Shown here: positions 10,096 through 56,527 of the stretch, piece after piece
How positions within the stretch are numbered: the stretch's first letter is position 1
How the letters are laid out: every line of letters begins with the position of its first letter
Origin: an uncultured Candidatus Saccharibacteria bacterium
GTDB lineage: Bacteria; Patescibacteriota; Doudnabacteria; UBA920
Reading direction: 5' to 3'
Assembly (NCBI GenBank): GCA_964521955.1
Contig: CAZFTX010000005.1
Coordinates: 804 to 64,803 of the forward strand
DNA: 64,000 nt
Position numbers and translations under genes: made by a program
Notes under the pieces: generated by a model
What the model was told of the DNA's origin: nothing
Databases searched by the model: none
What the model saw: only the letters and a program-made list of their open reading frames with translations

Positions 10096-10220
10096 ACAGG
10101 CGAAAAATATGTAATATATAAATAAAATTTTTATGCGGCATGAAGCCGTTTTCTTTTTGGGGAAATGACTTTTTGCGGCCTAAAGATTTTCGTGGTAAAT
10201 GGCCGACTTAAGGAGGCTGA

Positions 10221-32406: not shown

Positions 32407-32576
32407 AAATTGAAAGTTTTTTACTTGGAATTCTAACTGGTGAATTATAACTAAAATTACCGGTTTAAGTCAAGAAGCAAGACAGAATTAACCTAATCTC
32501 TAATTGTCCTAATTATTCAAAAAAATGCAAAGAAAGTTTTTAGGTTAATTAGTAATTAGGTCAATTAGAATAATTT

Positions 32577-34511: not shown

Positions 34512-34694
34512 GTTATAAAGTTATTTAACAATTATTCTAATTATAGTAGGCTTGTAAATAAAAATCCAAAGCGACACTAAAATACGAATTACATGCGAAT
34601 GACACTAATACTTAAATACTCTTCACAAAAGTCATGTTTTAAGCTAATATTGCAGGCAAGAATAGAGGTTGTTTAACAACCGGAAAGAGGGAAT

Positions 34695-34844
34695 ATGGAC
34701 AGTAGGTTTGAGGGTAACAACGTATGTGTTGGCGGGGCGCTGGTTTGTGGTCTCGTCGTGGTTGGTCTGTTTCTTTGCGCACTGTACTTCGGCGCAAAGT
34801 TCGTTGGACAGTTGGGCATGAGCCACCCGTTCGCGGGATTGTAG
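34695..34844 (+). CDS. small single-TM protein (49 aa), GC-rich two-gene cassette, gene 1
   Basis: AAAGAGGG RBS 6 nt upstream of the ATG; MDSRFEGNNVCVGGALVCGLVVVGLFLCALYFGAKFVGQLGMSHPFAGL. Below the ORF-track size cutoff. Confidence 0.3.
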   Translation: MDSRFEGNNVCVGGALVCGLVVVGLFLCALYFGAKFVGQLGMSHPFAGL

Positions 34845-34856
34845 AGAGGTGCTGGC

Positions 34857-35072
34857 ATGGAAAACAGATCTTGGCGGATTTTTTTGTGGGTTGTGGTTGT
34901 GGTTACGGTTTTGGCGCTGGTATTTATGTCAGTCGCTTTGGCAAAGAATAATGAAGGCAGGCTCTTTCTCCTGTGCTTCAAAGTCCTTGCTGTGGTGACT
35001 GGCTACTTTGGGGAAGCTAATTGGCGACAGGGCAGTGGTAACAGCGCTCAGTCTCGTGACGGCAAACAGTGA
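34857..35072 (+). CDS. small membrane protein (71 aa), GC-rich cassette, gene 2
   Basis: GAGAGG RBS; hydrophobic core WRIFLWVVVVVTVLALVFMSVALA; followed by hairpins at ~35100..35190. Confidence 0.4.
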   Translation: MENRSWRIFLWVVVVVTVLALVFMSVALAKNNEGRLFLLCFKVLAVVTGYFGEANWRQGSGNSAQSRDGKQ

Positions 35073-35420
35073 GAGCTTGGCAAAACAGAAATCTATTTCC
35101 AGCAGTAATCCGGAGCCCCAGCGGGGCGGTTCGGATTAGCCGGGTGAGCAGCGCGCTACGAGCGCGATGTTTACCCGGTTTAATTTTGTCTTGTTTCTAA
35201 GTATTTCAATTATTTCTCTTATTTCTGGAGCGGGATAAACCTATTTTCCTTATAAGCTAAGAGCTATTGTCTATAAGCTGTCTTAGGCTCTTGCTCAACC
35301 CGTATTTTTGTGGTAGACTTTTTATCAGTTTGTTTTTTCTACAGAAACAAACATTACTTTACAGATATCTGCAGATTTTTATTTGAGTTTAGTTTTTTTA
35401 GAATAATTAGAACAATTTTT

Positions 35421-38261
35421 ATGCGTGATGTTATCTCCATTCGCGGTGCGCGAATGCACAATTTAAAAAATATTAACGTAGACTTGCCTCGTAACAAACT
35501 TATTGTTATGACCGGACTTTCCGGGAGTGGCAAGTCTTCTTTGGCTTTTGACACTATTTATGCAGAAGGTCAAAGGCGCTATGTAGAAAGCTTGTCCGCT
35601 TACGCCAGGCAGTTTATTGGGCTTATGGACAAGCCCGACGTGGACAAGATAGAAGGTTTGTCTCCGGCTATTTCCATTGACCAAAAGTCTGCTTCTCACA
35701 ACCCGCGTTCAACTGTGGGCACGGTTACGGAAATTTACGACTACATGCGTCTTTTGTGGGCGCGTATTGGCGTACCTCACTGTCCGGTTTGCGGCAAAAA
35801 AATTCACGGTCAAACTTTGCAGGCTATGACCGACCAGCTTTTGGCTTTGCCTTCAGGTACAAAATTGGTTTTGCTTGCCCCGTTTATTAAAGATCAAAAA
35901 GGGGAGCATAAACATATCTTTGAACAAATAAAAAAGGCCGGTTTTGCCCGTGTTCGAGTTGACGGGACTGTTATGGATCTTTTTGAAGCCATGGGTCTTA
36001 GTTTAGACAAACAAAAAAAGCATAGTATAGAAGTCGTGGTTGACCGGGTGACAGTTTCCACTGAAGAAAAGGGGCGTTTGGCGGAAAGTTTGGAAAAGGC
36101 GGCTGACTTGGGCGACGGTTTGGTTTTAGTTTCCAAAACAGACAGTAAGGACGCTGACATTGTGCTTTCCCAAAAATATGCCTGTCCGGACGGACATGTG
36201 CAGTTAGCCGAACTTGATCCTAGGGATTTTTCTTTTAACAGTCCTCACGGTGCTTGTCCTGAGTGTAAAGGTTTGGGTACCAAGCTTACAGTTGAGCCTG
36301 ACTTGGTTATACCTAACCCAAAACTGACTTTGGCTGAAGGCGCGGTCAGGCCTTGGAGTAAAACCACTTCTAGGCAAAGCTGGTACATGAAAATTTTAGA
36401 GTCTGTAGCCAGGGAGTTTGGCTTTTCTTTAAATACGCCTGTAAAAGATTTACCGAAAAAATATTTAGATATTGTGCTTTATGGTACCGGAGATAAAAAA
36501 GTACACATGGTTATTGAGTCCACCACCAGTAATTCTAAAATAGACACTTATACTCCCTTTGAAGGCGTACTTTCTTATTTAGAGCGAAGATATTTGGAAA
36601 CCGACTCAGACTACATGCGCAGCGAAATAGAAAACTATATGCGGATTCGTCCTTGTCCGGTGTGTAAAGGTAAAAGGCTGAAAGCGGAAGTTTTGGCTGT
36701 GACTGTTGGTCAAAAGGGCATAGTGGACGTTTCGGGTATGACCATAGAATCTGCCAGCAAATATTTTACCGAACTTTTAAAACAGCTTTCTCAAAAAGAC
36801 CAGGCCATAGCTAAGCAGGTGTTAAAAGAAATTAACGCCAGGCTTTCTTTTTTGCTGAACGTTGGCCTTTCTTATCTTTCTTTGGACCGTACCGCCGACA
36901 CGCTTTCCGGTGGGGAAGCTCAGCGCATACGCTTGGCCACGCAAATCGGCAGTGGACTGACTGGCGTTTTGTATATATTAGACGAACCTTCTATTGGGTT
37001 GCACCAACGCGACAATGGCAGGCTGCTTAAAACTTTAAAAGATTTAAGAGACTTAGGGAATACGGTTATAGTAGTAGAGCATGACGAAGAAACTATTCGT
37101 GAAGCTGATTGGGTCGTAGACATTGGCCCCGGTGCGGGCAAGCACGGTGGGGAATTGGTTGGCGAAGGTACCCCAAAAGATATTGAAAAAAATAACAAGA
37201 GTTTTACTGGATTGTATTTGTCAGGGAAAGAAAGTATAGAAGTACCTAAGCGCAGAAAACCGGGTAACGGCAAAAAACTTTCCATAATCGGTGCTGAAGA
37301 ATTTAACTTAAAAAATGTAAACGTAGAAATTCCTTTAGGGAAGTTCGTTTGTGTTACCGGTGTTTCCGGCAGCGGCAAGTCCACTTTGTTAAACGATATT
37401 TTAGCACGGGCTTTAAACCGGCATTTTTGGGGAACCAAAGAAGAACCCGGCAAGCACAAGAAAATTTTAGGCTTGGAACATTTAGACAAAATTATTAACA
37501 TTGACCAAAGCCCAATTGGTAGAACGCCCAGAAGTAACCCTGCTACTTACACAGGATTGTTTACACCTATTCGCGAACTGTTTGCCGAAACTAGGGAAGC
37601 CCGCATGCGCGGTTACAAAGCCGGCAGATTTAGTTTTAACGTAAAAGGCGGGCGTTGTGAAAAGTGCGCCGGTGACGGGGTTATTCAAGTGGAAATGAAC
37701 TTCTTACCTGACGTGTACATTACTTGTGAAGAATGTAAAGGTAAGCGTTATAACCGCGAAGCTTTGGAAATACATTATAAAGAAAAAACCATTGCCGATG
37801 TTTTGGAAATGACGGTGGATGAAGCTAAAGTTTTTTTTGCCAGTATTCCCCAACTTTATAAAAAAGTGGAAGTGCTTTCCCAAGTGGGTTTGGGCTATAT
37901 GCACTTAGGTCAAAATGCCACCACACTTTCCGGGGGTGAAGCTCAGCGTATAAAGTTAGCCACTGAACTGTCACGTGCTTCTACCGGCAGAACTTTGTAT
38001 TTGTTGGACGAGCCTACTACGGGTTTACATTTTGCGGACGTAAAAAGGCTGATTCACGTACTTAATAAGCTTGTAGAAAAAGGCAACACTGTTGTAGTTA
38101 TTGAGCATAACTTAGATATGATTAAAACTGCAGACTGGATAGTAGACATGGGTCCCGAAGGCGGGGATAAGGGTGGTACTTTGGTAGCCGCCGGAACGCC
38201 GGAAGACGTGGCAAAAGTTAAGTCGAGTTATACGGGACAGTATCTTAAAAAAATATTATAG
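35421..38261 (+). CDS. uvrA: excinuclease ABC subunit A
   Basis: Start at [45 protein letters not shown]. The ORF-track N-terminal extension from 35310 was rejected. Two ABC ATPase modules with Walker [10 protein letters not shown] and the zinc-finger insertions are present. Confidence 0.95.
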
Positions 38262-38330
38262 AATTATTCTAAGTACGCTAATTACTCTAATTATTCTAAA
38301 ATAGATTTAGGACAATTAGAACAATAAAAA

Positions 38331-38378
38331 ACAGCCCGGACACCTCTGGAGTGAACCAGAGGGCCGGGTTGTTTTGTT
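38331..38378. terminator. bidirectional terminator between uvrA and PEP-CTERM gene
   Basis: CAGCCCGGACACCUCUGG...CCAGAGGGCCGGGUUGUUUUGUUG. Confidence 0.45.
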
Positions 38379-38404
38379 GCACGCGGCCAAAAGTTGGCCG
38401 CGTG

Positions 38405-38617
38405 CTACTTCTTGCGGTTCTTCCGCCACGCGGCAAACCCAATTGCCGCCACGCCGGCGCCCATGAGGCCGATGGTGGCCGGTTCGGGCACTTCGGAAGG
38501 GGTGCTGCCGTCGGTCGGTGCGCAGTTGTTGTCACTGCAGTCGGTGGCTTGGGCGAAATTCACGGAGCTAAGCAGAATCGTCAATGCGGTTGTGAGGAGA
38601 AGTTTCCTCATAGACAC
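38405..38617 (-). CDS. mini PEP-CTERM protein (signal peptide + ~20 aa Cys-containing mature region + PEP-CTERM sorting signal)
   Basis: 70 aa: MSMRKLLLTTALTILLSSVNFAQA/TDCSDNNCAPTDGSTPSE/VPEPATIGLMGAGVAAIGFAAWRKNRKK; roughly 60% GC. Confidence 0.7.
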   Translation of the reverse strand: MSMRKLLLTTALTILLSSVNFAQATDCSDNNCAPTDGSTPSEVPEPATIGLMGAGVAAIGFAAWRKNRKK

Positions 38618-38746
38618 CTCCTAGTGTCGGCTGGAACAACGCCATTTTTTAGGGCTTGCGATGAAACATGCAAGACCTTTTGACCCACAAGAAAATGAGT
38701 CCCTCTTTATGATTGATTTCGTATTCTACTACTTTTAGGGGTGGGT

Positions 38747-38868
38747 GTCAACCCAGTAATACAACATTTGATATTTAATAAAAAAATAGTGTTATGAAAT
38801 ATTAAGCTTTGTATAAGCATGTGTTTTTGTATAAATATAAAATCAAATGTTGATATACTGGGTCAACC
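38747..38868. repeat. 122 bp palindromic (MITE-like) element with ~25-30 bp terminal inverted repeats, copy 1
   Basis: GTCAACCCAGTAATACAACATTTGAT...ATCAAATGTTGATATACTGGGTCAACC. It is 97% identical to 39797..39917 and lies ~130 bp upstream of the minus-strand PEP-CTERM gene start. Confidence 0.7.
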
Positions 38869-38965
38869 TTCTTATGTTAAAAGAAAAGAGCGAACCGTCA
38901 CGTGACTGCGGTTCGCTCTTTTTGCGTTGTTAGGCGCTCTTGTTACTCCCGCATGGAGCGGAAGT

Positions 38966-39658
38966 CTAGAGCTTGTTGTTGCGTCGACGTCGGTGGAGGA
39001 ACAGCAGGCCTCCGAGACCTGCGCCCATGAGTACGTACGTGCCGGGCTCCGGAACTTCGCCCGGACGTTCATCGCCAAACAGGTACTGAGTGAATGTCAC
39101 AGAGTTGAGCCTTGTTTGACCGTTGCTGCGTACGCGAAGAAGCGTTTGTTCCCATGCTCCGAAAGCGCCGACGTTGTCGCGTAGAAACGTTCCCGCCGCG
39201 TAAGTGTTGTCGTACCAGTGATCCACGGATCCGTCGCCGTGAAGCAGGGTTTCCACCGTATGTGGTGTTCCGGCAACGCGCGGAGTGAGGTCAAAGAACA
39301 CAAACGTTTCAATCGCCGGTGCGTTGCTGTAGCGTTCGTAGCCGAGCAGAGAAGCGCCGAACAAGGATCCGTTTTGTGTACGCGGGTTGAGACCGTTGCT
39401 CAAGTTCTGCTGGAACATGTCGATGTTGGCGTTGGGATTGTCTTCGTAGCTCACCGACGCATAGGTTGAGCCGCTGTTGATGAAGATGCCGACCTCGGTG
39501 TTGGAATTCTGGGTGATGGTGATTGTGCCGTCGCCGTTGTCGGTAAACGTGCCGTCGCCGTATGTGGTCCACGTAAGACCACCGAAGTCAATGGTCGCGG
39601 CGTTGGCCGAGAGGGCCGCAACGGTCGCGAGAATCAAGAGAACGAGAAATTGCTTCAT
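38966..39658 (-). CDS. PEP-CTERM domain secreted protein
   Basis: 230 aa; signal peptide, Gly/Thr/Asn-rich body, C-terminal EVPEPGTYVLMGAGLGGLLFLHRRRRNNKL; GGAGG RBS; GC-rich codons. Confidence 0.8.
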   Translation of the reverse strand: MKQFLVLLILATVAALSANAATIDFGGLTWTTYGDGTFTDNGDGTITITQNSNTEVGIFINSGSTYASVSYEDNPNANIDMFQQNLSNGLNPRTQNGSLFGASLLGYERYSNAPAIETFVFFDLTPRVAGTPHTVETLLHGDGSVDHWYDNTYAAGTFLRDNVGAFGAWEQTLLRVRSNGQTRLNSVTFTQYLFGDERPGEVPEPGTYVLMGAGLGGLLFLHRRRRNNKL

Positions 39659-39796
39659 GACACCTCCGTGATGTGTCGGTTAGCACTACGCCTATTTTAG
39701 CCTTGCCTAAAAAATCCAAAGCAAGACTTTTTGCCTAACTAGTTATTAGGCCTCCTTATATAACGACTTATTAGTTTATAGTATTTCGGGCATGGG

Positions 39797-39917
39797 GTCA
39801 ACCCAGTAATACAACATTTGATATTTAATAAAAAATAGCGTTGTGAAATATTAAGCTTTGTATAAGTATGTGTTTTTGTATAAATATAAAATCAAATGTT
39901 GATATACTGGGTCAACC
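39797..39917. repeat. 122 bp palindromic (MITE-like) element, copy 2
   Basis: Near-identical to 38747..38868; ~140 bp upstream of the start of the 38966..39658 gene. Confidence 0.7.
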
Positions 39918-40194
39918 TTGTTAGGTAAATAAAAAAAGCCCCACGCAAATCGACGATTTCGATATTGGTGGGTAACTTTTTCGTTTGGAACTCCTAAGGT
40001 TCCTCCTGGTTGTGTCGCGTGTGAGTTTGCTTCGCACCCAAGCTCGTCTTAACGACGAACGGGAATTAGCCCCAAAGGGGCCAGTGGCTTTACATTCAAC
40101 CCTTTTTTAAAAGGATCTCCTCTACACACAACGGTTGTGGTTGTAAGATGCGTTTTCGGCGGTGCTCGCCTTGCGCACCTCATGATCTTGTTCC

Positions 40195-41520
40195 TCAAGC
40201 CTGCGCGGCTCGGGTGTCAATCACTTGTTGCGCGGCCTCCGAAGGGGGCGTGCTTGCGATGAGCCAGACTCGGCCGTTGGGATTGCTTGAATAACGGATG
40301 TTCAAACCCCTCCAGCCAAGACTTTCCATGCTCCTCCGAAGATCTTGGGCCTGTTCCAAGCCTTGTTTGCCGGCGCCGATTTGGACTTCTGCCGCGCCAG
40401 TTGTTCGGTCAATGTTCGGTTCTCGGTCAATCCCTTGTGAAAGCAGAAACTCCCTGAACTTTCCAACGAGCTCGTTTGGGGAATTCGCTTCAATTGGGAT
40501 AACCTTGTTTATTCTGGAAGGCAGTTTCGCCTGTTGTGGTCGCTTGTTTTCCTTGGAGTGTGCCCAAAGGCAGTATCCGAGTATAACAAGCAGAAAGAAG
40601 CAAGCGCCGCCCACTATTGAGCCAACCAGAATGAGGTTGTTGGTGGGTTGTTTTGTTACCACTTTCGCTTCGCCCTTCGCGAGACCGTTGCTGTCCTTGG
40701 CCGGAGCTTCTTCACAGTCAGCCGATGCGGCTGACATGATGTCAAAGCTCATGGAACCGTTTGGACTATTTGGCCTTTGGAAGCAGGGCATTTTGCTTTG
40801 CGGAATGGGCAGGGGCCCACGCCGGACAGCAGTTTGCGCAGGCGGGGGAGGAAGGGCTTTCGCAACTTGGGGTTTTGCCTGTTTCTGAACTGGTTGTTCA
40901 ACCTTAGGCGTTACTTTGGTTGCTATTTGCTTTTTCTCTTTTGCCGCCGTCGGCACTTTTGCCACTCCTGCCGGTTTCGGGGTTGCTTTCACCGCGACCT
41001 TGGCCGGAGCCTTGGGCGCGAGTGGTTTCGGAGCTGTTGCGACAACAGCCTTGGGGGCTGGAGCGGATTTCTTCACGGGAGTCGGGACAGCGGCCTTGGC
41101 CACTGCCGGCGACTTTTTGGCTGGGGTTCTGGTTTGGAGTGCGGGCTTCTTCGTGCCAATTGGTTCGGGCACGGGAGTCATTGCAGCCACGCCACTGTTG
41201 ACGTCGCTGACCACGTACTTGCCGGTTGGCATGTAGCGCCAAACTTCGGCGCGACAATTGCCGACAAACGCAACCTCGCTTCCAACTTCCGCCTTCGGGA
41301 AGTTGACTCGGATGAGCTTTTGGTTTTCCGGCGTTACCGTGACAGTGAACACCAGCTTTTCAACTTCGCAAAAGGCTCCGCGGAACATGCGAGCGAAGTG
41401 GCTCGCAGTTTGTCCGGGTGCCAAAATCACTTCCTGTGGCAACTTAACTTTCTCTTCTTGGGCAAGCCCAAGAGAGGAGAGAGCTGCTGCAAGAAGCAAA
41501 AGCCGAGATGTGTTAAACAT
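40195..41520 (-). CDS. Pro/Ala/Lys-rich membrane protein (signal peptide, PAK low-complexity region, TM, C-terminal globular domain)
   Basis: 441 aa; MFNTSRLLLLAAALSSLGLA signal, ~120 aa of AP/AK/PK repeats, TM LILVGSIVGGACFFLLVILGYCLW, then a 110 aa C-terminal domain. GC-rich. Confidence 0.55.
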   Translation of the reverse strand: MFNTSRLLLLAAALSSLGLAQEEKVKLPQEVILAPGQTASHFARMFRGAFCEVEKLVFTVTVTPENQKLIRVNFPKAEVGSEVAFVGNCRAEVWRYMPTGKYVVSDVNSGVAAMTPVPEPIGTKKPALQTRTPAKKSPAVAKAAVPTPVKKSAPAPKAVVATAPKPLAPKAPAKVAVKATPKPAGVAKVPTAAKEKKQIATKVTPKVEQPVQKQAKPQVAKALPPPPAQTAVRRGPLPIPQSKMPCFQRPNSPNGSMSFDIMSAASADCEEAPAKDSNGLAKGEAKVVTKQPTNNLILVGSIVGGACFFLLVILGYCLWAHSKENKRPQQAKLPSRINKVIPIEANSPNELVGKFREFLLSQGIDREPNIDRTTGAAEVQIGAGKQGLEQAQDLRRSMESLGWRGLNIRYSSNPNGRVWLIASTPPSEAAQQVIDTRAAQA

Positions 41521-41842
41521 CTTTTTTGGCCTCCTCTTCAGTTGTGAATCTAACTAAACTTCAGACCAAAAACTTCTGGTCCTGAAAAAAATCTAACTAG
41601 GTAGTAGCTTGTTAGCTAGTAGCTTTTTAGATACCTATCAGCAAAAGAAGTTTTTTTGATTTTTAGAACAATTAGGTAAATTAGAACAATTAGAATAATT
41701 CAGTATTTTTTCTTTTTTGACTTTACACTTTAACATTTTCTTTGATTTTTGTCAATGTATATTTTGCAGATTCTAATCTAAAGCGGGACCAGCTCCGTTA
41801 GAGGTTGGTTATTTTAAAAATAACCGTAAGCTCTAAGCGGGG

Positions 41843-41971
41843 GTTGACCCAGTAGAGCTACATTGCAAATATGTTTTTGTTTTATTCAGTATAAATAAGA
41901 GCATTTTTTTATAAAACGTTTAATTAGGAATTCAATTGCAATGTGATTCTACTGGGTTGACAATTTCTCTC
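41843..41971. repeat. palindromic (MITE-like) element, variant copy 3 (GTTGACCCAGTAGAG...CTACTGGGTTGAC)
   Basis: Shares the CCCAGTA terminal core and a CAxCATTGxAA inner arm with copies 1/2. It lies ~175 bp upstream of the third PEP-CTERM gene. Confidence 0.55.
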
Positions 41972-42146
41972 TTATATATTACGATGTTTGGTGCTACAGG
42001 GGTCGATTTTTTGATCCCTGTTTGTACGTTGTGTGTACACACTACGGTAGTTGGACAGCACTGCGCTGTCACAACTTACCGTCAACCGCGGTTCTTTAGA
42101 CCCCACCTTGAAGAGGGTGGGACAAATCCACGGAGGATTGAGTACC

Positions 42147-42854
42147 ATGAAGTTTAAGAGGAAGAAGCCCCAGACCATTGTGTCATGGGGTAAAATGATG
42201 TTTGCGATCGCTCTGATTGCCATGTTGGCCGGCCTCACGGCCGCGCCGGCGAACGCGGCGGTGATTGGACCAGGTGGATCTGGAGTGGCGTCTGATTTCG
42301 GAGTCATTTCCGGCACCGTCTTGGTGGAAACTACTGTGCTCGGGGTCGTGGGTGTTCCCACGGCAACCTTTACCGGTGATTACGCATACTCTGTGATTGA
42401 CGAGGGTGGCGGGATTCTCGCGTTTCTGTACCAGTTCAGCAACTGGGCCAGTTCCGATGATCCGGTGCTTCGCACGACTCATAGCTCATTCACCGGGTTC
42501 GTTACCGACGTTGGCTACACCACAGTCGTACCGGTTGGTACCACGGTGTTCAGCGCCGGCGGCGTAGCCTCGACGGATGTCTCGCGCAGTGGCAGTGGCA
42601 GTGTGGTTCGGTATGACTATGATGCGGGTGTGGATCCGGGTACGTTTACCTACATCATGGCCATTCGTGTCACTGCTGATTACTGGTCGCGTGGTGGTTC
42701 ATTCACGGCTCAAGATGGAAGCGTGGGAGCCGTGACGGCAGCTAATCCCGAATCGGTTCCCGAGCCCGGCACGTACGCGCTCATGGGCGGCGGCCTGTTG
42801 GCCCTCGCTGCCCTGCGTCGGCGCAACAAGGGAGGTGACGACACCTCCAACTAG
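42147..42854 (+). CDS. PEP-CTERM domain secreted protein
   Basis: Start at MKFKRKKP (GGAGG RBS; the ORF-track 42051 start was rejected). Signal/TM, Gly/Ser/Thr/Val-rich body, C-terminal SVPEPGTYALMGGGLLALAALRRRNKGGDDTSN. Confidence 0.75.
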   Translation: MKFKRKKPQTIVSWGKMMFAIALIAMLAGLTAAPANAAVIGPGGSGVASDFGVISGTVLVETTVLGVVGVPTATFTGDYAYSVIDEGGGILAFLYQFSNWASSDDPVLRTTHSSFTGFVTDVGYTTVVPVGTTVFSAGGVASTDVSRSGSGSVVRYDYDAGVDPGTFTYIMAIRVTADYWSRGGSFTAQDGSVGAVTAANPESVPEPGTYALMGGGLLALAALRRRNKGGDDTSN

Positions 42855-43098
42855 CGGTCTTCTGCTGACTGAGCCGAACCCCCGTTCGTAAGGGGTGTCG
42901 GACCGGCTCATGAAGCGGACGGGGAGAAGGGTTACCACGGCTCTTCTCCCTACGATTTCAAGCAGTGTTTAGTTTTGAGTTCGACCTGTACGCTGGTGGC
43001 GCAAGCTATCAATCGCGTTTGGGTCGCGCTGGTCGCAACTTATTGGTTACGGTCGCCCATCTCCAGTGGCGGTTGTTTCCTGGTTGCGGTCAGTATTT

Positions 43099-43139
43099 AG
43101 CGGGCGGGTCTCCACCAGAGACCCCCCGCCTCTTTTTTT
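43099..43139 (+). terminator. intrinsic terminator
   Basis: GCGGGCGGGUCUC-CACCA-GAGACCCCCCGCC followed by UCUUUUUUUA. Confidence 0.5.
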
Positions 43140-43179
43140 ATTCAACACCATTTTTTGACTATTTTTCCTTTACCTCGAC

Positions 43180-43213
43180 CACTATGATACTGTCCAGTAT
43201 CATAGTGGTTTTA
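43180..43213. repeat. 34 bp perfect palindrome AACCACTATGATACTGTCCAGTATCATAGTGGTT, copy 1
   Basis: Identical copy at 53576..53609; followed by TTTATTTTTT. Confidence 0.6.
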
Positions 43214-43980
43214 TTTTTTAAGTTTAATTGTTTGAATTTTAAAATATAATTGTTCGATGTTTTTTTGTTTCTATGTTTGAATGCTCGCATGCTCAAATGC
43301 TTGTATGTTTTTACGAAAGTCATGCTCTAGACAGGTTTGGGGGATTGTGATATTCTGCTTTTTACAAAAAGGGGGAGAAATAACAAAGAATTTTGGTCTT
43401 GGTCGCAGGGTACTTTGGGGAAGTGGTTTTCCTTAGGCCTTGTGACTTAGGGGTGGCAGGCGTTTTGTAAGAAGCGCAGTTTGTAAGACAGAGCCGCGCT
43501 GGTGAAGCTTGCGAGCGCCTGCTTAACCTTTTGGTCTTCCCGGACTCCAGACCCCTCTATGGGTACCGGGATTGGGCGGCGGGGTTGTTTCCCTCCATCC
43601 TCGCCGCTCCAAAATTTCTTCAAGCTCCCTTGCCCGCTCATGTGGGAGTCCATGAGTGCCGTAGCAGGGAAAAGTCCGGGTGAGTTGCCCCCAGCAGGCA
43701 CCACCCGGATCTTATTTATCCAGCACCATTTTTTGACTCCAGAAAATAATGCTGGATTTATCTAAAATTATTGTTCTTTTTAGAATAATTAGGTAAATTA
43801 GAATAATTTATTGGTGTTTATAAACCCTCTTTCCACATATTTTGTCCACATTTGGTGGATAAATACCCCTTTTACCCCCGCTATAGGCGGGCTTTTTTAT
43901 TTGCTAAAGTAATCCTACAAGTGTTTTAGTAATAGTTTTTAGAAACAAAATTTTAAAGAACCAAGGCTTTTTAAAAAAGC

Positions 43981-45204
43981 ATGTCCCAACTCAAGTCTAA
44001 AATCGAAGCAGAGCTTCAAAAAAATACTGACGTTTCTATTATTTCTTTGGTTCAAGACTTGGTTGTTTACGCTCACGAAACCCGCGCTTCAGACATTCAC
44101 ATAGACCCGGTGGAAAAATTTGTCAGAGTTCGTTTAAGAGTTGATGGAGTTCTGTTGGAAAGTTTTAAGTTTCCAAAAAACATTCACTCTGAAGTTGTTA
44201 CCAGAATTAAAATTCTTTCCGGATTAAGGACAGACGAACATCAAGCTGCACAGGACGGACGTTTTCGTATAGACAAAGTTGAAGGGGAGAGGCCGCTGGA
44301 TGTTCGTGTTTCTATTACTCCCACTTACTTTGGAGAGAACGCAGTTTTAAGACTTTTGTCAGACAAAGAAGAAGGTCACACTTTAGACACATTGGGTTTT
44401 TCTAAAAGTAACCAGCAGAAGATTTTAAAAGCAATTAAGCGTCCGTTTGGAATGATACTAGCAACAGGTCCTACCGGCTCGGGTAAAACCACTACGCTTT
44501 ATACGCTTATACAAATGTTGAACAATCCGGAAGTAAACATTGTAACCATTGAAGACCCGGTAGAGTACGCAGTGGAAGGTGTTGAGCAAATTCAGGTGAA
44601 CCCCAGAACTGGTTTAACTTTTGCAAATGGCTTACGCTCCATACTCAGACAAGATCCGAACATAATTATGGTAGGGGAAATCCGCGACTCAGAAACTGCA
44701 GGCATAGCTATAAATGTGTCCTTGACCGGACACTTGCTCTTTTCCACTCTCCATACTAACGACCCGGCAACTACTTTGCCTAGACTACTAGATATGGGTA
44801 TAGAAGCTTATCTTGTGGCTTCAACTGTAAATTTGGCCATTGGTCAAAGACTGGTCAGGAAAATTTGCAGTTCCTGTAAAAAAGAAAAAGTTTTTACTTC
44901 GGCTGAAACCAAAAGTCTTTCCGAACATATCCCTTCAAGTGTTTTAAAAAAGTTTAAAAACTTTTACGAAGGCAAAGGCTGTGAAGCCTGTAATAACACC
45001 GGCTACAAAGGTAGAGTCGCTATACACGAAGTTTTAGAAATAGACGAAGCGGTTAAGGAAGCAATTTTAAAAAAATCTACAGCAACAGAAATTAAAGAAA
45101 TTGCCATGAAAAATGGAATGATTCCTATGGGTCAAGACGGACTCCTGAAAGCTGCTGCCGGAATAACCACCATACAAGAAGTTTTACGCGTTTCTCATGA
45201 ATAG
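43981..45204 (+). CDS. pilB: type IV pilus assembly ATPase, GspE/PilB family (short form)
   Basis: 407 aa; Walker A GPTGSGKTT, Asp box, His box and C-terminal CxxC...CxxC zinc motif (CSSCKK...CEACNNTG). Confidence 0.85.
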   Translation: MSQLKSKIEAELQKNTDVSIISLVQDLVVYAHETRASDIHIDPVEKFVRVRLRVDGVLLESFKFPKNIHSEVVTRIKILSGLRTDEHQAAQDGRFRIDKVEGERPLDVRVSITPTYFGENAVLRLLSDKEEGHTLDTLGFSKSNQQKILKAIKRPFGMILATGPTGSGKTTTLYTLIQMLNNPEVNIVTIEDPVEYAVEGVEQIQVNPRTGLTFANGLRSILRQDPNIIMVGEIRDSETAGIAINVSLTGHLLFSTLHTNDPATTLPRLLDMGIEAYLVASTVNLAIGQRLVRKICSSCKKEKVFTSAETKSLSEHIPSSVLKKFKNFYEGKGCEACNNTGYKGRVAIHEVLEIDEAVKEAILKKSTATEIKEIAMKNGMIPMGQDGLLKAAAGITTIQEVLRVSHE

Positions 45205-45252
45205 TGGTGAATTATTCTAAGTACCCTAATTGATCTAATTATTCTAAAAGGG

Positions 45253-45612: not shown

Positions 45613-45665
45613 TTGGGATTTATTTAGGTTAATTAGAGTAATTAGAACAATTAGAATAATTCAGT

Positions 45666-47206: not shown

Positions 47207-47251
47207 AAAAAATTAACCTAATTATTCTAATTTCTAATTAACCTAAAATTT

Positions 47252-48712
47252 ATGAAAATAAAAAATTTGTTTAAAAGGTCGCAAGGAGGATATACCACTG
47301 CAGAAATGCTAATTGCTTTTTTCATTATGACCGTGGCTATTTCCGGAGTTAGTACTATTGCTTTTGGAAACCAGTCAGTTTCTGTGGACACTGAAAAAAA
47401 CAGTGAAGCTTTGCGTATTGCCCAAGCTGTAGCAGAAGACAAAAGAGCCATGGCAAAAACTAACTTCGACAGTTTACAAACTTCAGACTGCGACACTGCC
47501 GGGTATGAGTGTGAAGTTTTGGTTTCCAGTCCTCAGCAGAACTTAAAACAAATTACCACAACGGTTTCTTGGGTAGAAGGTAACAGGCCGCAAAGCGTGG
47601 TTTTAAAAAGCCGAGTGGCAAACTTAGAGGAAGAAGAAGCAACCGGCGGAACCGAAGGTGGTGGTAACAGAGAAAGTTCAGGGGGTGACGACGGAGGAGA
47701 TGATGGTACGGGAAGTGGTGGGGGTAGTGGAGGAAGTAATGGTTTTTGTCCAACGGTTAATAATATTTTCTCTCAAGACACTACAGCTAGTTTGGCTGGT
47801 AAAACTACCGGATTGGACGTTGTTAATAATTTAATATACCTAAGTTTAGATACGAGTGGAGATAATACTTTAAGTGATTTTGTTATTCTCGATTCAAATA
47901 ATTTAAATAAAATTGTAAAAATTTCAGAACTCAAAACTCAATCCGGAGGCTTAAATGCTATAGATATTGCAAATGGGTACGCGTATACTGTGGGGAAAAA
48001 GTTGGGAGCACAGTTAGAAATAATAAATGTTTCGAGTTCTACTAGTCCAAGTTTAGAAAGTTTTTTAGATTTATCATCCGCTGGGCTTAGTATATTTTAT
48101 AGGGACAATAAAGTTTATGCAGGTACCGAAAACAATCCCAGTGGCCCAGAGTTTTATGTAATAGATGTGACTGATTCCAGTTTGCCTTCGGTTTTAGGTA
48201 GTTTTGAAATTGGTGGGGGAGTTAATCAAATTGTGGTTCGGGGAAATACAGCCTATCTTGCAACTACTCACGGAGCTAAGGATATTGTAGTATTAGACGT
48301 TTCAAATCCTACCAGTATTTTAGAGACAAGAGTTTACAATAATTCCTATGCTGCAGCTGCACAGAGTTTGTATTTCTATGATAGTAAAATTTTTGCAGGT
48401 TCAAATCCTAACCTATTAGTCTTGGACCCAAGCACTAATCCAGTGAATTTAACTGCTTCAAATTCCATGCCTATGAATATTAATGATATTGTTATTTCTG
48501 GAAACTTAGGTTTTCTTGGAACAGATTTGGCAAATAAACGTTTTCAAATATGGGATATGAGTAATTTATCCGACATGAAATATTGCACAAGTTCAGATAA
48601 TATTAGTCCTTTGTTTAACGCTCCGGTTACAGGGATAATTTATCAAAACGGTTTGGCTTATGTTGCCATGTATAAAAATGGAATATCGGTTCGTGTTGTA
48701 AAGTTGAATTAA
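47252..48712 (+). CDS. pilin-like protein fused to Gly/Asp-rich linker and LVIVD-repeat beta-propeller-like domain
   Basis: 486 aa; prepilin-like N-terminus SQGG/YTTAEMLIAFFIM (Glu+5), then an EEEATGGTEGGGN...GSGGGSGGSNG linker. Repeated motifs follow: LEIINVSSSTSP, FYVIDVTDSSLP, DIVVLDVSNPTS, LLVLDPSTNPV, FQIWDMSNLSD. Confidence 0.55.
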   Translation: MKIKNLFKRSQGGYTTAEMLIAFFIMTVAISGVSTIAFGNQSVSVDTEKNSEALRIAQAVAEDKRAMAKTNFDSLQTSDCDTAGYECEVLVSSPQQNLKQITTTVSWVEGNRPQSVVLKSRVANLEEEEATGGTEGGGNRESSGGDDGGDDGTGSGGGSGGSNGFCPTVNNIFSQDTTASLAGKTTGLDVVNNLIYLSLDTSGDNTLSDFVILDSNNLNKIVKISELKTQSGGLNAIDIANGYAYTVGKKLGAQLEIINVSSSTSPSLESFLDLSSAGLSIFYRDNKVYAGTENNPSGPEFYVIDVTDSSLPSVLGSFEIGGGVNQIVVRGNTAYLATTHGAKDIVVLDVSNPTSILETRVYNNSYAAAAQSLYFYDSKIFAGSNPNLLVLDPSTNPVNLTASNSMPMNINDIVISGNLGFLGTDLANKRFQIWDMSNLSDMKYCTSSDNISPLFNAPVTGIIYQNGLAYVAMYKNGISVRVVKLN

Positions 48713-50324: not shown

Positions 50325-50993
50325 ATGCGCATGGTTTATTTGCGCTTTCGTGTAGTTTTGCTCGGAGCTCTTCTGGGCATCTTGCCAATTTCTCAGGCCT
50401 TCGGAGCCACGTTGACGTACGATTCTCTCACGGGAAGCACGGAAACGATTGGAACTTGGGGAGCACAAGCAACTGAGAAGTATGGTCAGACGACTACTGT
50501 ACCAGTCACACACACGCTTCTGACATCGTTTGCTTTTTCAATGAATTTCAACGGCGACAGCGCCGCGAGTGCAAACCTTCAGGTGCATGTGTACGGCTGG
50601 GACGGCAGCGCGCCAACAGGGGCGGCCCTTTGGTCCAGTGGCGTGTTGAACGCTTCCGGCGCCGGGTTCATTGACCAGTCTTTGAACATCGGTCTGAATT
50701 TGGTGGGTGGCCAGAACATTGTCTTGTACGTTGAGGCTCTTTCTGGTGACATTGCCGTATTCAAACGGCCGGGAATTTCACAACCGCTCATTGGGGTCGA
50801 CGTTTTTCCCGGAGGGTTTGTATTCCAGAATGGCATTGAGCCGTGGGTTCAAGATTTCATGGGTACTGACACCGACCTGGGCGTCATTCTCACATGGGAT
50901 CAAACGGAGGGCGGCGGCGGGGAAGTTCCTGAACCTTCTACGGTCGCTCTTGTCGGCGCTGGTGTTGCGGCGTTGTTGTTTCGCCGGCGCTAA
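50325..50993 (+). CDS. PEP-CTERM domain secreted protein embedded in pilus locus
   Basis: 222 aa (start may be the second ATG at 50331); signal peptide, then a C-terminal GGGGEVPEPSTVALVGAGVAALLFRRR; roughly 55% GC. Confidence 0.8.
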   Translation: MRMVYLRFRVVLLGALLGILPISQAFGATLTYDSLTGSTETIGTWGAQATEKYGQTTTVPVTHTLLTSFAFSMNFNGDSAASANLQVHVYGWDGSAPTGAALWSSGVLNASGAGFIDQSLNIGLNLVGGQNIVLYVEALSGDIAVFKRPGISQPLIGVDVFPGGFVFQNGIEPWVQDFMGTDTDLGVILTWDQTEGGGGEVPEPSTVALVGAGVAALLFRRR

Positions 50994-51227: not shown

Positions 51228-52361
51228 ATGAAAGTTAAAGTAAAGGTTGTTACCAACAATATTAATAGTAATAAAAAGTTTTTGAAAAAAAATTTGCTTT
51301 ATAAAGCAACAGCGTTTTTATGTATAGTTACTTTGGTTTTTTCTTTAATGTCTTCTAAAGACAAAGTTGTTGCAGCTGACTATCCTACTGCTACTTTGAT
51401 TGTGAAGAAAATTGTTGAAAACAATAATGGCGGTACCAAAGTTTCCTCTGACTTTACTATGTATGTAATTGGTTTGTCCGGAGTTCCTGGACCTGTAGCA
51501 ACACCTGACACTTATTCAACATCTTTTCCTGGTGACGCTTTTGGAACGCCAATCCTTTTAGGAGTAGGGAACTATCAAGTCACAGAAACTGTTTTGCCGG
51601 GTTATGCTGTAACTTACTCTGACGAATGTAGGAGTTCTACAGGCGGAATTCTAGAAGAAAACGTTGAAAGAACTTGTATAGTTACCAACTCAGACATTCC
51701 TGCAAAATTAAACGTAGTAGTGCAGGTGTTAAACGATAACGGTGGAAGTAAAGTGCCAGGTGACTTTAATGTTGTTGTAACTGGCGGTAATGCCAACCCA
51801 AGAAATTTTCCCGGAGATGAAAGCGGTACAGAAGTAGTCATGCACTCCGGAGTATATTCTGTAGACGTAGATCCTGACAGTAATTACGACATTACTTATT
51901 CTCCTGAATGTGCGGACAGTTTAGCTTTAGCTGAAAGTGTGACTTGTACTGTGAATATAAACGACATTGAACAAACAGGTGGTGGAGGTACTGGTGGTGA
52001 TGGGGAAGACGAAGAAGAAACACCCCCTCCTGGTGGTGGCGGTGGAAATTCGAGCGGTGGTGGCGCAGGTGGCCCAACTCCAACAGGTCCAGGATCTTCG
52101 GGAGGTGGCGGAACTTCTTCCGGCGGCAGCGGAATTCCAACCCCACCAACTCAGCCTAGTGACGGTGAAGTTTTAGGAGTTTCTACTACCAATGTCCCAA
52201 GTATTTCCATGCCCACAGACGGTGGTATACAGCCCGAGGGACAAGTATTAGGAGCTTCAACTGAATTGCCAAGAACCGGTACAAATGCTATGAGTGTTGT
52301 TATTTCCTTACTTGCTGGACTTTTGGTTTTTGTTCCCAAAATGAAGTTAAAGTTCAAGTAA
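51228..52361 (+). CDS. LPXTG-type cell-wall-anchor protein with two tandem beta-sandwich (prealbumin/Cna-B-like) domains
   Basis: 377 aa; N-terminal TM/signal; repeats ATLIVKKIVENNNGGTKVSSDFTMYV and AKLNVVVQVLNDNGGSKVPGDFNVVV; Gly/Ser/Pro-rich stalk. The C-terminus is LPRTG followed by a hydrophobic stretch and KMKLKFK. Confidence 0.75.
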   Translation: MKVKVKVVTNNINSNKKFLKKNLLYKATAFLCIVTLVFSLMSSKDKVVAADYPTATLIVKKIVENNNGGTKVSSDFTMYVIGLSGVPGPVATPDTYSTSFPGDAFGTPILLGVGNYQVTETVLPGYAVTYSDECRSSTGGILEENVERTCIVTNSDIPAKLNVVVQVLNDNGGSKVPGDFNVVVTGGNANPRNFPGDESGTEVVMHSGVYSVDVDPDSNYDITYSPECADSLALAESVTCTVNINDIEQTGGGGTGGDGEDEEETPPPGGGGGNSSGGGAGGPTPTGPGSSGGGGTSSGGSGIPTPPTQPSDGEVLGVSTTNVPSISMPTDGGIQPEGQVLGASTELPRTGTNAMSVVISLLAGLLVFVPKMKLKFK

Positions 52362-52416
52362 TTTTAAAAATTCCGGGTCGCCAGTTTAGGCACTCGGAAT
52401 TTTTGTTTTTATCAAA

Positions 52417-53001
52417 ATGAATAAGTTTAAAAAACCATTATTAGCAATTTTAGTTTTTACTATGGTTTTTATTGCGCTTAACTTTTCTTTTTTTAAGAAC
52501 AAATTTAACTTTACTTTTGAAGGTAGAAAAAGCATATACAAATCCCCGGCAGTTATACCCGTGATAAAAAAAGTTACGCCGAATTTTTTAACGATTGAAA
52601 CTTTAAACATAAAAGCCCCTATAGTTTATGTGGGAGAAAATAAAGAAGAAGTTTTTCAAACTGCCTTGCAAACCGGTGTAGTGCATTTTCCAGGGACTGC
52701 AAAACCCGGAGAATATGGAAATGTTTACATACTAGGACATAGTTCAGACTATGCTTGGGCTAAAGGGGAGTTTAAAACCGTTTTTGCAAGTTTACCTGAG
52801 ATTCAAAAAGGTGTGGAAATTACTGTGAGTGATTCTGAAGGCAACCCTTTTACTTACACAGTTACAGGCACTAAAATTGTTGCCCCGGAGGAGCTTTCGG
52901 TTTTAGACCAAGACTTTAAAAAGAAAACTTTAACTTTGCAAACTTCTTACCCCCTAGGCACTGCTTTAAAACGTTTTATAGTAACTGCCGAATTGAAATA
53001 A
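52417..53001 (+). CDS. sortase-family protein with Ser in place of the catalytic Cys
   Basis: 194 aa; N-terminal TM; VYILGHSS (His motif); KKTLTLQTSYP aligns with sortase QLTLITCDDY but has TCT (Ser) where TGT (Cys) is expected; KRFIVTAEL carries the conserved Arg. Confidence 0.65.
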   Translation: MNKFKKPLLAILVFTMVFIALNFSFFKNKFNFTFEGRKSIYKSPAVIPVIKKVTPNFLTIETLNIKAPIVYVGENKEEVFQTALQTGVVHFPGTAKPGEYGNVYILGHSSDYAWAKGEFKTVFASLPEIQKGVEITVSDSEGNPFTYTVTGTKIVAPEELSVLDQDFKKKTLTLQTSYPLGTALKRFIVTAELK

Positions 53002-53081: not shown

Positions 53082-53573
53082 ATGACAAAACTTTCTCGGA
53101 GGTCTTTAGACCCTAGTCAGTTGGGCTACTTAGTTAATAACTTGTGGTCGGCTTTTACTTTAATGAGCACCAAGGAAGACATTCGTCTTTTGTTTAAAGA
53201 TGTATTAACTCAGACTGAAATAAGAATGATTGCTAAACGTTTAGAAATAGTGAGGAGACTTTTAAAACAAGAGTCTTATGAGAATATTCAGAAAGAATTA
53301 AAAGTAACTTCCGGTACTATTAATGCAATAGGCAATATTTTAAAATTGAGAGGCGATGGTTTTCGTAAGGTATGTTTAAAGTTGGACGGTTTGGAAGAAA
53401 AATACATTAAACAACAAAGAGAAATAACAAAAAATCTTGAGAATCCATTTAGGAAGAAAACTCAAAGAAAAACATTATTGGGAGAAGTAATTAAGGCAGG
53501 TATTAGTGCCTTAGATAAAAAGATTATTCAGACTCAAAAGCATAATTCTGCCAAAAAAGTATTGCCTTCCTAA
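53082..53573 (+). CDS. TrpR/YerC-YecD family helix-turn-helix protein
   Basis: 163 aa; LFKDVLTQTEIRMIAKRLEIVRRLLKQESYENIQKELKVTSGTINAIGNILK matches the YerC/Trp-repressor-like fold; Lys-rich C-terminal tail. Confidence 0.6.
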   Translation: MTKLSRRSLDPSQLGYLVNNLWSAFTLMSTKEDIRLLFKDVLTQTEIRMIAKRLEIVRRLLKQESYENIQKELKVTSGTINAIGNILKLRGDGFRKVCLKLDGLEEKYIKQQREITKNLENPFRKKTQRKTLLGEVIKAGISALDKKIIQTQKHNSAKKVLPS

Positions 53574-53575
53574 CC

Positions 53576-53609
53576 ACTATGATACTGTCCAGTATCATAG
53601 TGGTTTAAA
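53576..53609. repeat. 34 bp perfect palindrome AACCACTATGATACTGTCCAGTATCATAGTGGTT, copy 2
   Basis: Identical to 43180..43213. It sits between the yerC-like stop and the start of the next pilin-like gene. Confidence 0.6.
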
Positions 53610-53610
53610 T

Positions 53611-55026
53611 TTGGGGATTTTTATGAAGAAGGTAAGAATTAAAGTAGAAAGTTACTTAGGGGGTTATGTGGCTATGGAAATGATTTTAGCCTTGTTTGTT
53701 TTTGCTCTCTTGGTTCCGGCTGCAGTGGTTTTAATTTTTTCAAACCAATTTGCAATTATAGACACTGAAAACAACCATACAAGTTTAATTTTAGCTAAAG
53801 AAGTTTTTGAAGAAACTCAAGCAGTTGGTAGGAGTAATTTTAGTTCACTCTCACCTTTAGCGGAGATTCCCGAAGGTGATTTTTTCAAAGACAATTATTT
53901 AGAAGAAATTTCAGACTATGCCTTTTTTTCTGACAGTCGTTCCTGGCATAAAAACTATACTTTAAAAAAAGTTGAACTGCCAACCGCATTTATAGACTGG
54001 AAAAACGCTCTAGGAAAAGACAGTTGTGCTTTAAGTTTTTCCGACAGTTGGGGATCACCGGTTTTAAAAGGAAGTATGAATTTGGGTTTAGGAAACGAAG
54101 CTTTAGATTTAGATGTTCATAATAAAAAAGTTTATATTACCGCTAATTTCTCTCCGGTCTCACAGAGAGATTTTTTTATAGTTGAGGTTACAGATCAAAA
54201 TACTCCTTTTCTTATTTCTTCGCTTCATTCTGGACCTGGGTTATCTGCTGTGCATGTTGCAGGTGATTATGCTTATGTTGCAAATGCAACCCTGACCAAT
54301 CAGTTTCAAGTAATAAGTATTGCAGATAACAATAATCCTATTTTAGTTAAGACTTACAAAATACCGGGGGTTACAGGCACCGGTGGAGCTGGTGTTGGTA
54401 AAAGTATTTTTTATTTAAATAAAAAAATTTATATTGGACTTACAAAAGCCACCGGCCCAGAGTTTCATATTCTTGATGTTGCAATTCCAAACTCGCCGGT
54501 GTTGCTTGGTGCTTTTGAAACTAACACAGTTGTTAGCAGTATTTTTGTAAAAGATGGACTCGCTTATCTGGCAACTGGGGAAGGGGATCAGTTTAGAATT
54601 TTGGACGTAAGTAATCCGAGTAATATTTTTGAACTTGGTAGTTTAGGTTGGCTTAGCCAGTCAGGCCAAAGTGTTACTGTTTTAGGTAATCAAGTAGTTT
54701 TTGGAAGAGCAGGAGGACTTTCTAACTCAGGGCAGCATGAACTTTTTTTGTTAGATGTTAAAAACAAAACATTACCCACATCAGTTTTTTCTTCAGATTT
54801 AAATTTTAGTATTAGGGATATTTTTTGGAGAGATGGATTGGTGTTTTTAGCGACTAACAAAGCTGGGGCGGAATTTCAAGTGTTTGAAAAGTTGGGTAAT
54901 GTATTGGTTTTTAAATCAGGCTTGGATTTAGGCAGTCCGGCTACAGCTTTAGACTGTGAAGATGAAAGCATATTTGTGCTTTCAGAAAATGGTAAATTGA
55001 GCATACTTAATCCGGGTTCTTATTGA
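53611..55026 (+). CDS. pilin-like protein fused to LVIVD-repeat beta-propeller-like domain (paralog of 47252..48712)
   Basis: 471 aa; prepilin-like SYLGG/YVAMEMILALFVFALLV (Glu+5); repeats FFIVEVTDQNTP, FQVISIADNNNP, FHILDVAIPNSP, FRILDVSNPSN, LFLLDVKNKTLP. Confidence 0.55.
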   Translation: MGIFMKKVRIKVESYLGGYVAMEMILALFVFALLVPAAVVLIFSNQFAIIDTENNHTSLILAKEVFEETQAVGRSNFSSLSPLAEIPEGDFFKDNYLEEISDYAFFSDSRSWHKNYTLKKVELPTAFIDWKNALGKDSCALSFSDSWGSPVLKGSMNLGLGNEALDLDVHNKKVYITANFSPVSQRDFFIVEVTDQNTPFLISSLHSGPGLSAVHVAGDYAYVANATLTNQFQVISIADNNNPILVKTYKIPGVTGTGGAGVGKSIFYLNKKIYIGLTKATGPEFHILDVAIPNSPVLLGAFETNTVVSSIFVKDGLAYLATGEGDQFRILDVSNPSNIFELGSLGWLSQSGQSVTVLGNQVVFGRAGGLSNSGQHELFLLDVKNKTLPTSVFSSDLNFSIRDIFWRDGLVFLATNKAGAEFQVFEKLGNVLVFKSGLDLGSPATALDCEDESIFVLSENGKLSILNPGSY

Positions 55027-56424: not shown

Positions 56425-56527
56425 TTATTATGAGTAATAATTAATCTAATTTCTAATTAACCTAATTTACCTAAAACTCTCAATTATTTAGAACAATTAG
56501 AGTAAATAGAATAATTTTTTAATATTT

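Follow-up and report, generated by a model that had tools for sequence, protein, structure and literature searches.

What are GC-rich genes for proteins with a PEP-CTERM sorting signal doing between uvrA and pilB in an AT-rich, sortase-bearing genome, and how firmly do they belong there? This question is raised by the uvrA–pilB island of contig CAZFTX010000005.1, of which 64,000 nucleotides (64 kb) are analysed here; this whole stretch, with about 38% GC and short genes, is referred to as the window. The encoded proteins are canonical PEP-CTERM proteins, and what is new is their probable domestication, as a locus of strain-variable surface proteins in a sortase-bearing genome resembling those of the candidate phyla radiation (CPR). 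Judging by the comparisons described below, the main feature of the locus is that mature domains are replaced wholesale between close strains, with the position of the island kept across lineages.

The island genes encode canonical PEP-CTERM proteins

Three genes with VPEP-hydrophobic-Arg-rich ends were named in the original prediction, and all three are present and score above the cutoff of the hidden Markov model that was proposed as a check (TIGR02595); a fourth, overlooked there, is found by a regular-expression motif scan of the six reading frames. The open reading frames (ORFs) are gene 1 (38405-38617, minus strand; 70 residues from a GTG start and 68 residues from the ATG at 38611; TIGR02595 28.4 bits, PF07589 32.2 bits), gene 2 (38966-39658, minus strand; 230 residues; 26.7 and 28.3 bits, respectively), gene 3 (42147-42854, plus strand; 235 residues; 25.1 and 28.7 bits) and gene 4 (50325-50993, plus strand; 222 residues; 24.1 and 29.1 bits), all four being above the curated cutoffs of both models, which are 16 bits for TIGR02595 and 20.7 bits for PF07589. 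Each tail consists of VPEP, a hydrophobic helix and an Arg/Lys cluster at the C-terminal end. The predicted signal peptides, as read from the sequence, are hydrophobic N-termini that end in AQA, ANA or AFG. When 13 tails from four loci and three lineages are compared, VPEP.T..L...G is found to be invariant; the helix and the basic cluster vary.

Gene 1 has a signal peptide, a short Cys-containing mature part and a VPEPATIGLMGAGVAAIGFAAWRKNRKK tail; its 68-residue form adjoins uvrA on an independent contig (L101) and has orthologues on contigs L002 and L103. The mature domain of the 230-residue protein is predicted to be a jelly-roll of the concanavalin A (ConA)-like lectin/glucanase type. Gene 4 is located inside the pilus locus, as a separate transcription unit between a pilin gene and the gene of an LPRTG protein, and only near-identical relatives of it are returned by the protein search. 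The LPXTG model TIGR01167 is not matched by these tails (12.2 bits for the 230-residue protein, with a cutoff of 15.9 bits, and no score for the other PEP-CTERM ORFs). Residues 103-228 of the 235-residue protein score 33.5 bits against the PepA family NF033554, with a cutoff of 80 bits, and a 265-residue allele on L103 scores 30.4 bits.

The base composition is also in agreement with the original prediction, which had described genes of about 55-60% GC with GC-rich third codon positions. The overall GC content of the island genes is 0.55-0.61, and the GC content at third codon positions (GC3) is 0.57-0.76 for the PEP-CTERM genes (0.76 for gene 1 and 0.57 for gene 4) and 0.56 for the 441-residue membrane protein that is also encoded in the island. 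When compared with the native genes (GC3 0.318±0.052, n=45), these values correspond to z = 4.7-8.5.

Exchange of mature domains at a conserved position

The same gene set is found in a sister lineage, represented by L102 (a 39.7-kb JGI contig) and L103 (from ENA), whose UvrA and PilB are 99% identical in protein sequence to those of the window, with 0.007 nonsynonymous (dN) and about 0.4 synonymous (dS) substitutions per site. On L102, the order is uvrC, uvrA, a 69-residue PEP-CTERM protein, the second gene, a 533-residue membrane protein, a 211-residue PEP-CTERM protein, pilB and pilC. All four island genes are also present in a more diverged lineage (L002, with a dS of at least 1), on a contig of 4.5 kb whose ends coincide with the borders of the island, and the flanking genes are thus beyond this contig.

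Inside this conserved frame, the mature parts differ. The cassette at about 39062-39594 of gene 2 (the 230-residue allele) has no detectable similarity to the 265-residue allele of L103, and the cassette at 42259-42746 of gene 3 (the 235-residue allele) is replaced by an unrelated 208/211-residue allele in L099 and L102. P0022 is a third allele of gene 3, in which the signal peptide and the tail are kept. The 5' untranslated region (UTR), signal peptide, tail and 3'UTR are 82-98% identical between the window and L099, L102 and L103, and the conservation of the UTRs is 85-92%. For orthologous island genes, dN/dS is 0.19-0.47, compared with about 0.02 for the flanking genes, and the dN of island genes is 20-30 times the flanking-gene dN. 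These values indicate that the island genes are likely to be functional and to encode fast-evolving, exchangeable surface domains.

Proposed function and the question of the exosortase

The uvrA–pilB stretch is probably an old, native and hypervariable locus for surface proteins in a lineage resembling the CPR/Patescibacteria, built from genes of diderm bacteria that have the PEP-CTERM/exosortase system. On the best reading, its products would be domesticated, strain-variable, membrane-anchored, adhesin-like proteins. The genes would originally have come from PEP-CTERM/exosortase-bearing diderms and would have been domesticated under native promoters. Their products would leave the cytoplasm by the Sec route, with the C-terminal helix keeping them at the cell surface, and an exosortase-family enzyme encoded elsewhere would recognise VPEPxT, cleave the tail and re-anchor the protein. 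The surface proteins, encoded beside a type IV pilus locus, may be strain-specific adhesins or glycan binders for contact with a host or a matrix. Their mature domains are exchanged between lineages, and the UTRs, signal peptide and tail are kept.

Several points weigh against this reading. In the 64 kb, neither an exosortase nor an archaeosortase nor EpsI turns up when the unassigned and membrane proteins are scanned with Pfam and NCBIfam, or when XrtA and EpsI are used as tblastn queries, and neither exopolysaccharide (EPS) nor outer-membrane genes are seen there. In the 2006 survey, every bacterium with PEP-CTERM proteins had EPS genes and an outer membrane (Haft et al. 2006, PMC1569441); the present genome looks monoderm-like, with a sortase and no secretin in the pilus locus. 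The conserved resident tails have a GC3 of 0.75-0.93, with no decay between lineages at a dS of at least 1, which is not predicted by a simple ancient transfer followed by amelioration; such persistence would call for recombination with GC-rich DNA that still goes on, or for selection acting on properties of the codons or the RNA. The fold model of the 230-residue protein has moderate confidence only, and the structure model of the 235-residue protein is unusable, with a predicted local distance difference test (pLDDT) score of 40. Also, the CPR assignment is based on gene content and on a promoter element that this genome shares with metagenome-assembled genomes (MAGs) labelled Saccharibacteria, not on phylogeny.

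The statement in the original prediction that no exosortase is in view is correct for the 64 kb, and neither exosortase nor EpsI occurs on the syntenic contigs. It carries little weight, given that linkage between PEP-CTERM genes and the gene of the enzyme is not the rule (Haft et al. 2006, PMC1569441). An XrtA/EpsI neighbourhood, absent at the island of the window, is present on L104, the contig of a homologue, and the 64 kb are probably a small part of the genome. A cognate processing enzyme encoded elsewhere is suggested by the conservation of VPEPxT, which stays invariant despite saturated synonymous sites and varying helix and basic residues. An unlinked gene of the exosortase family elsewhere in the genome is favoured, if not strongly.

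It is possible, if unlikely, that the signal is used independently of an exosortase, the tail being a membrane anchor only, or being recognised by the local sortase or another protease. A helix plus basic cluster suffices for membrane retention, and this genome encodes a sortase and, 250 bp past gene 4, an LPRTG substrate. The lack of exosortase and EpsI genes in the window and on the syntenic contigs fits this possibility, as does the literature search, in which no paper is found that links an exosortase or archaeosortase to Patescibacteria (the one paper naming both PEP-CTERM and the CPR concerns the host organism only). However, a role as an anchor only would not constrain VPEPxT, which is invariant in all 13 tails, the tails are below the cutoff of the LPXTG model, and the lack of the enzyme gene from 64 kb is expected either way. 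In a related view, considered rather doubtful, a monoderm-like CPR lineage captured the diderm signal and uses it without an exosortase, as a new processing or anchoring route, or as a membrane anchor combined with a recombination handle for swapping surface domains from environmental DNA; such a handle would also explain the undecayed GC-rich composition.

Promoters, inverted repeats and the mode of diversification

The PEP-CTERM genes form separate transcription units. Every one of them has a native promoter of the sigma-70 type and a long 5'UTR that is conserved, together with a Shine-Dalgarno sequence and a terminator. The upstream intergenic regions are 350-630 nt long and include a shared promoter/UTR repeat. 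Genes 1-3 are each preceded by an element of about 120 nt, followed by a -10 box, a 5'UTR of 110-185 nt and a GGAGG Shine-Dalgarno sequence. The architecture of the element is GTTGAC|CCAGTA…TACTGG|GTTGAC, in which the gene-proximal arm provides the TTGACA -35 box. For gene 1, the 5'UTR, the sigma-70-like promoter (38751..38723, TTGACA-17-TAGAAT) and the inverted repeat (38746-38868) cover 38618-38868 on the minus strand. The corresponding region of gene 2 (39659-39917, minus strand; promoter 39801..39773, element 39796-39917) is about 90-93% identical to the copy at 38734-38887. The inverted repeat and promoter of gene 3 are at 41842-41985 on the plus strand (element 41842-41962; promoter 41957..41985, TTGACA-17-TACGAT), and the promoter of the 441-residue protein gene is at 41755..41727 on the minus strand. 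Gene 4 lacks the element; as judged from the nucleotide sequence, it is served by a separate promoter-like site and Shine-Dalgarno sequence and is flanked by hairpins.

In a scan of 185,579 species genomes, the same paired-arm element is found in MAGs labelled Candidatus Saccharibacteria, where it is upstream of rpoB (three genomes) and infC; no PEP-CTERM genes occur in the 8-kb loci of three such MAGs that carry it. Since the element precedes rpoB and infC in these genomes, it is a lineage-wide, promoter-associated element, which did not arrive with the PEP-CTERM genes. Further copies outside the window are at L033 4995-5117, L068 3157-3278, L017 2694-2814 and L002 4112-4183 (72 nt). GTTGAC is present on both sides of every copy, and the inner segment occurs in two orientations among genomes, both of which are represented upstream of rpoB (two genomes). 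The orthologous promoters of L002 are without the element and have the 'empty site' AAGGGTTGACAAT. The element is a candidate miniature inverted-repeat transposable element (MITE), the empty L002 sites and GTTGAC flanks being MITE-like, or a candidate invertible switch, given the two orientations. A hairpin, GTCTTGC-(10-14 nt)-GCAAG(G/C)C, is common to the 5'UTRs of genes 1 and 2 (38640-38690 and 39695-39745, minus strand); it is kept in L002 (3225-3270 and 4245-4290) and is a possible cis-regulatory RNA element. One near-match to a sigma-54 site, noticed by eye in the 5'UTRs, has the wrong spacing and was dropped.

Conserved ends with variable middles, together with inverted repeats upstream of the genes whose inner segment has both orientations in different genomes, could point to a dedicated cis mechanism of diversification, such as a diversity-generating retroelement, an integron-like cassette array or a shufflon, in place of allelic exchange by homologous recombination. 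This is thought to be improbable. There is no reverse transcriptase, recombinase or integrase in the window (for reverse transcriptase, the ORFs were read by eye, and 24 were also scanned with Pfam), and no template/variable repeats of a diversity-generating retroelement are found in 37500-44500. The repeats that are found are promoters and tails, without a template/variable pair, the alleles are unrelated in sequence and not point-mutated, and the inverted repeat is upstream of the -35 box, also before housekeeping genes.

Ancestry and base composition of the island genes

Protein searches with three queries return 3, 1 and 10 relatives among 5.8 billion proteins, and no close donor. The family of the 235-residue protein includes a Sphingomonas rhizophila protein and P0023 (32% identity), encoded on L104, a contig of uniformly 54% GC that near P0023 also has genes for the exosortase A XrtA (TIGR03109, 216.3 bits with a cutoff of 208), EpsI (PF11984) and a 761-residue tetratricopeptide repeat (TPR) protein, and further PEP-CTERM genes. 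A homologue that is 54% identical to the 230-residue protein is encoded at 2-370 of L003, a non-CPR-like contig. This contig also has, about 0.8 kb from the homologue, a GC-rich (0.62) DDE-transposase fragment (1211-1888), a possible sign of mobility in the putative donor pool. In a soil bacterium with GlnD, PII and sigma-54 genes, the tail has the same protein sequence, and the DNA that encodes it is 86% identical. The occurrence of the 235-residue family beside XrtA/EpsI in a GC-rich contig and in Sphingomonas points to a descent of the island genes from the PEP-CTERM repertoire of GC-rich diderm bacteria, by an ancient horizontal transfer. This origin would be old because the island is present in both diverged lineages. 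When carriage by phage is considered, viral contigs are found to match only the generic tails, and the PHROGs give nothing.

The strong compositional deviation and the homologues in GC-rich diderm contexts would also be expected if the GC-rich genes were recent passenger DNA, i.e. newly acquired, non-functional and decaying. This explanation is very improbable and largely refuted: the island is at the same position at a dS of about 0.4 and has a syntenic copy at a dS of at least 1, none of the ORFs is disrupted and their dN/dS is below 0.5, the genes have native promoters, Shine-Dalgarno sequences, terminators and UTRs that are 85-92% conserved, and the 5.8 billion proteins include no close donor.

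Integrity of the island

The intergenic DNA of the island is AT-rich and of the native type. The motif TTAGAAYAATTAG is present in 17 copies in the window, compared with 0.42 expected, all of them intergenic, and it is found at both island borders and in the middle (38278-38319, 41663-41693 and 43780-43792). A palindromic terminator at 43177-43210 recurs nearly identically at 53573-53602. The motif copies and this shared terminator inside the island bear out the earlier description of GC-rich genes in native-looking AT-rich surroundings. Independent Logan contigs, i.e. contigs from other sequencing runs, cover the region as well: L097 corresponds to 39890-43196 at 100% identity, L101 joins uvrA to gene 1, and L100 (99.7%) and L099 join the island to pilB. 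The synteny is upheld in the JGI and ENA assemblies.

The original prediction had allowed for a chimeric join to a contaminating high-GC contig; although the GC shifts are abrupt, this possibility is negligible and is ruled out because both junctions are spanned by contigs from other runs (L101 on one side and L100 and L099 on the other), the JGI and ENA assemblies have the same synteny, and the GC-rich parts are four separate ORFs, each with AT-rich flanks that carry the genome's own repeats.

The motif TTAGAAYAATTAG is frequently in tandem, as TTAGAAYAATTAGGTAAATTAGAAYAATT, with further copies at, for example, 32500-32521, 35398-35410, 45226-45247, 45633-45654, 47218-47230 and 56488-56500. 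Among the fetched loci, it is present only in the closest ones (L097-L102) and is absent from L002 and the Saccharibacteria MAG loci. The two terminator copies are hairpins of 30-34 nt, each with a T-run after it, and the gene ends at which they are located are unrelated; they resemble repetitive extragenic palindromic (REP) sequences, and Logan contigs break there. The segment 43161-43711 (about 550 nt), bordered by 27-nt direct repeats (43134-43160 and 43712-43738), includes the native terminator at 43177-43210 and a GC-rich stretch at about 43420-43710, and has no counterpart on the L002 island contig.

The 441-residue protein and conserved non-coding stretches

The Pro/Ala/Lys-rich membrane protein of 441 residues, as described in the original prediction, is encoded at 40195-41520 on the minus strand and is bitopic. 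It has a signal peptide, an outer domain of about 95 residues, a Pro/Ala/Lys-rich stalk, one transmembrane (TM) helix and a cytoplasmic domain of about 120 residues. It is present in every island copy, with a stalk of variable length, its orthologues having 533 residues in L102/L103 (with a stalk insertion) and 428 residues in L002. No match is found in Pfam, NCBIfam, PHROG or the PDB sequences, and a search of 1.84 billion representatives gives one relative, with none outside the island.

The non-coding parts of the island are better conserved than the coding parts. A GC-rich stretch of 264 nt, 3' of the 441-residue protein gene (39931-40194, minus strand) and with a terminator hairpin at its end, has a mean column identity of 87% across the window, L002 and L102, whereas the identity between the protein encoded next to it and the L002 orthologue of this protein is 30%. 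The sole ORF in this stretch is broken by indels, and RNAalifold predicts a multi-hairpin fold with two compensatory pairs; the stretch is a candidate structured 3'UTR or small RNA. The GC-rich 3' untranslated stretch of gene 3 (42855-43135, plus strand), which ends in a hairpin and a T-run when read from the sequence, is 91% identical to L102 and 70% identical to L002. Known RNA families were also considered for the GC-rich non-coding stretches, and Rfam gives only hairpin-like chance matches, with none for 39931-40194.

Gene neighbourhood and cell envelope

Upstream of the island are uvrC and uvrA. The automatic ORF of uvrA (35310-38261) begins at the GTG at 35310, and the true start is likely the ATG at 35421 (MRDVISIRG…), in agreement with the 945-946-residue UvrA called on L101 and L102. 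Downstream is a type IV pilus locus with pilB, a four-helix-bundle '23S IVP' gene, pilC, pseudopilins and LVIVD-repeat proteins. Two large LVIVD-repeat proteins (47252-48712 and 53611-55026) are encoded within and after this locus, the first one having a pilin-like N-terminal helix. An hrcA-grpE-dnaK-dnaJ operon is present beyond the pilus locus.

A SpaA_2-domain protein (PF19403; 51228-52361, plus strand) ends in LPRTG, a TM segment and a basic tail, and is followed by a sortase gene (52417-53001, plus strand; PF04203 88 bits; TIGR01076 51.5 bits with a cutoff of 39.35). Of the sortase/LPXTG pair that had been proposed, the sortase is confirmed by both models; its LPRTG-ended neighbour stays below the cutoff of the LPXTG model. 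The two genes (51228-53001) are the native anchoring system of this genome. No secretin is found in the pilus locus of the 64-kb window. The sortase, the LPRTG protein, the secretin-less pilus locus and the hrcA-grpE-dnaK-dnaJ operon together suggest a monoderm-like CPR cell.

Other GC-rich patches (0.45-0.54) are seen at 5600-6200, 6800-7000, 8400-9036, 10200-10400, 22884-23189 and 34673-34981. They include two ORFs without a family match (175 residues at 5652-6179 and 101 residues at 22884-23189), with a GC3 of about 0.5. Other patches look non-coding, and no Rfam matches are found for the patches. These patches could be further foreign genes or structured RNAs.

Discussion

When compared with the PEP-CTERM/exosortase (XrtA-EpsH) system (Haft et al. 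2006, PMC1569441), the locus is similar in its canonical tails, signal peptides, multiple copies and diverse mature parts, in its organisation as units of one gene, each behind a large upstream region with a common DNA element, and in one mature domain that has a homologue in a genuine XrtA/EpsI locus. It differs in its low-GC, sortase-bearing, CPR-like host without an exosortase in the window, in its promoters, which are sigma-70-like with a lineage-specific inverted repeat and not proteobacterial sigma-54/PrsR sites, and in the clustering of the genes at one fixed position, with mature domains that are exchanged between strains. The Zoogloea flocculation protein PepA (NF033554) is likewise a small secreted matrix/surface protein with weak similarity to the 235-residue protein beyond the tail, but the latter is far below the 80-bit cutoff and is not a member of this family.

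The LPXTG/sortase system of monoderms also combines a signal peptide with a C-terminal motif, helix and basic tail, and such a pair is encoded 0.2-2 kb from gene 4; the island motif is, however, VPEPxT and not LPxTG, and the tails miss the LPXTG model. The PGF-CTERM/archaeosortase ArtA system of archaea is an exosortase-family system in single-membrane cells, and an outer membrane is thus not mechanistically required. This system has another motif and enzyme subfamily, and no archaeosortase-like gene is found in the window. The locus is also similar to strain-variable adhesin and pilin antigen loci, whose alleles are exchanged by homologous recombination, when considering the conserved 5' and 3' ends, the unrelated centres between close strains and the high dN, but no silent cassettes or recombinase are seen here, and the variable parts are foreign in base composition.

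The persistence of GC-rich codon usage in a genome of 38% GC is an evolutionary puzzle of its own. A sorting signal hitherto tied to outer-membrane, EPS-producing bacteria is now found in a sortase-bearing small genome, and the outcome for this genome would be notable either way, being either the first exosortase system in the CPR or a use of the signal that needs no exosortase. An attached life on host cells is assumed for CPR/Patescibacteria, and to our knowledge the surface molecules that set their host range are largely unknown. Exposed domains that are wholly different between lineages with 99% identical flanking proteins are the signature expected of determinants of host recognition or matrix binding.

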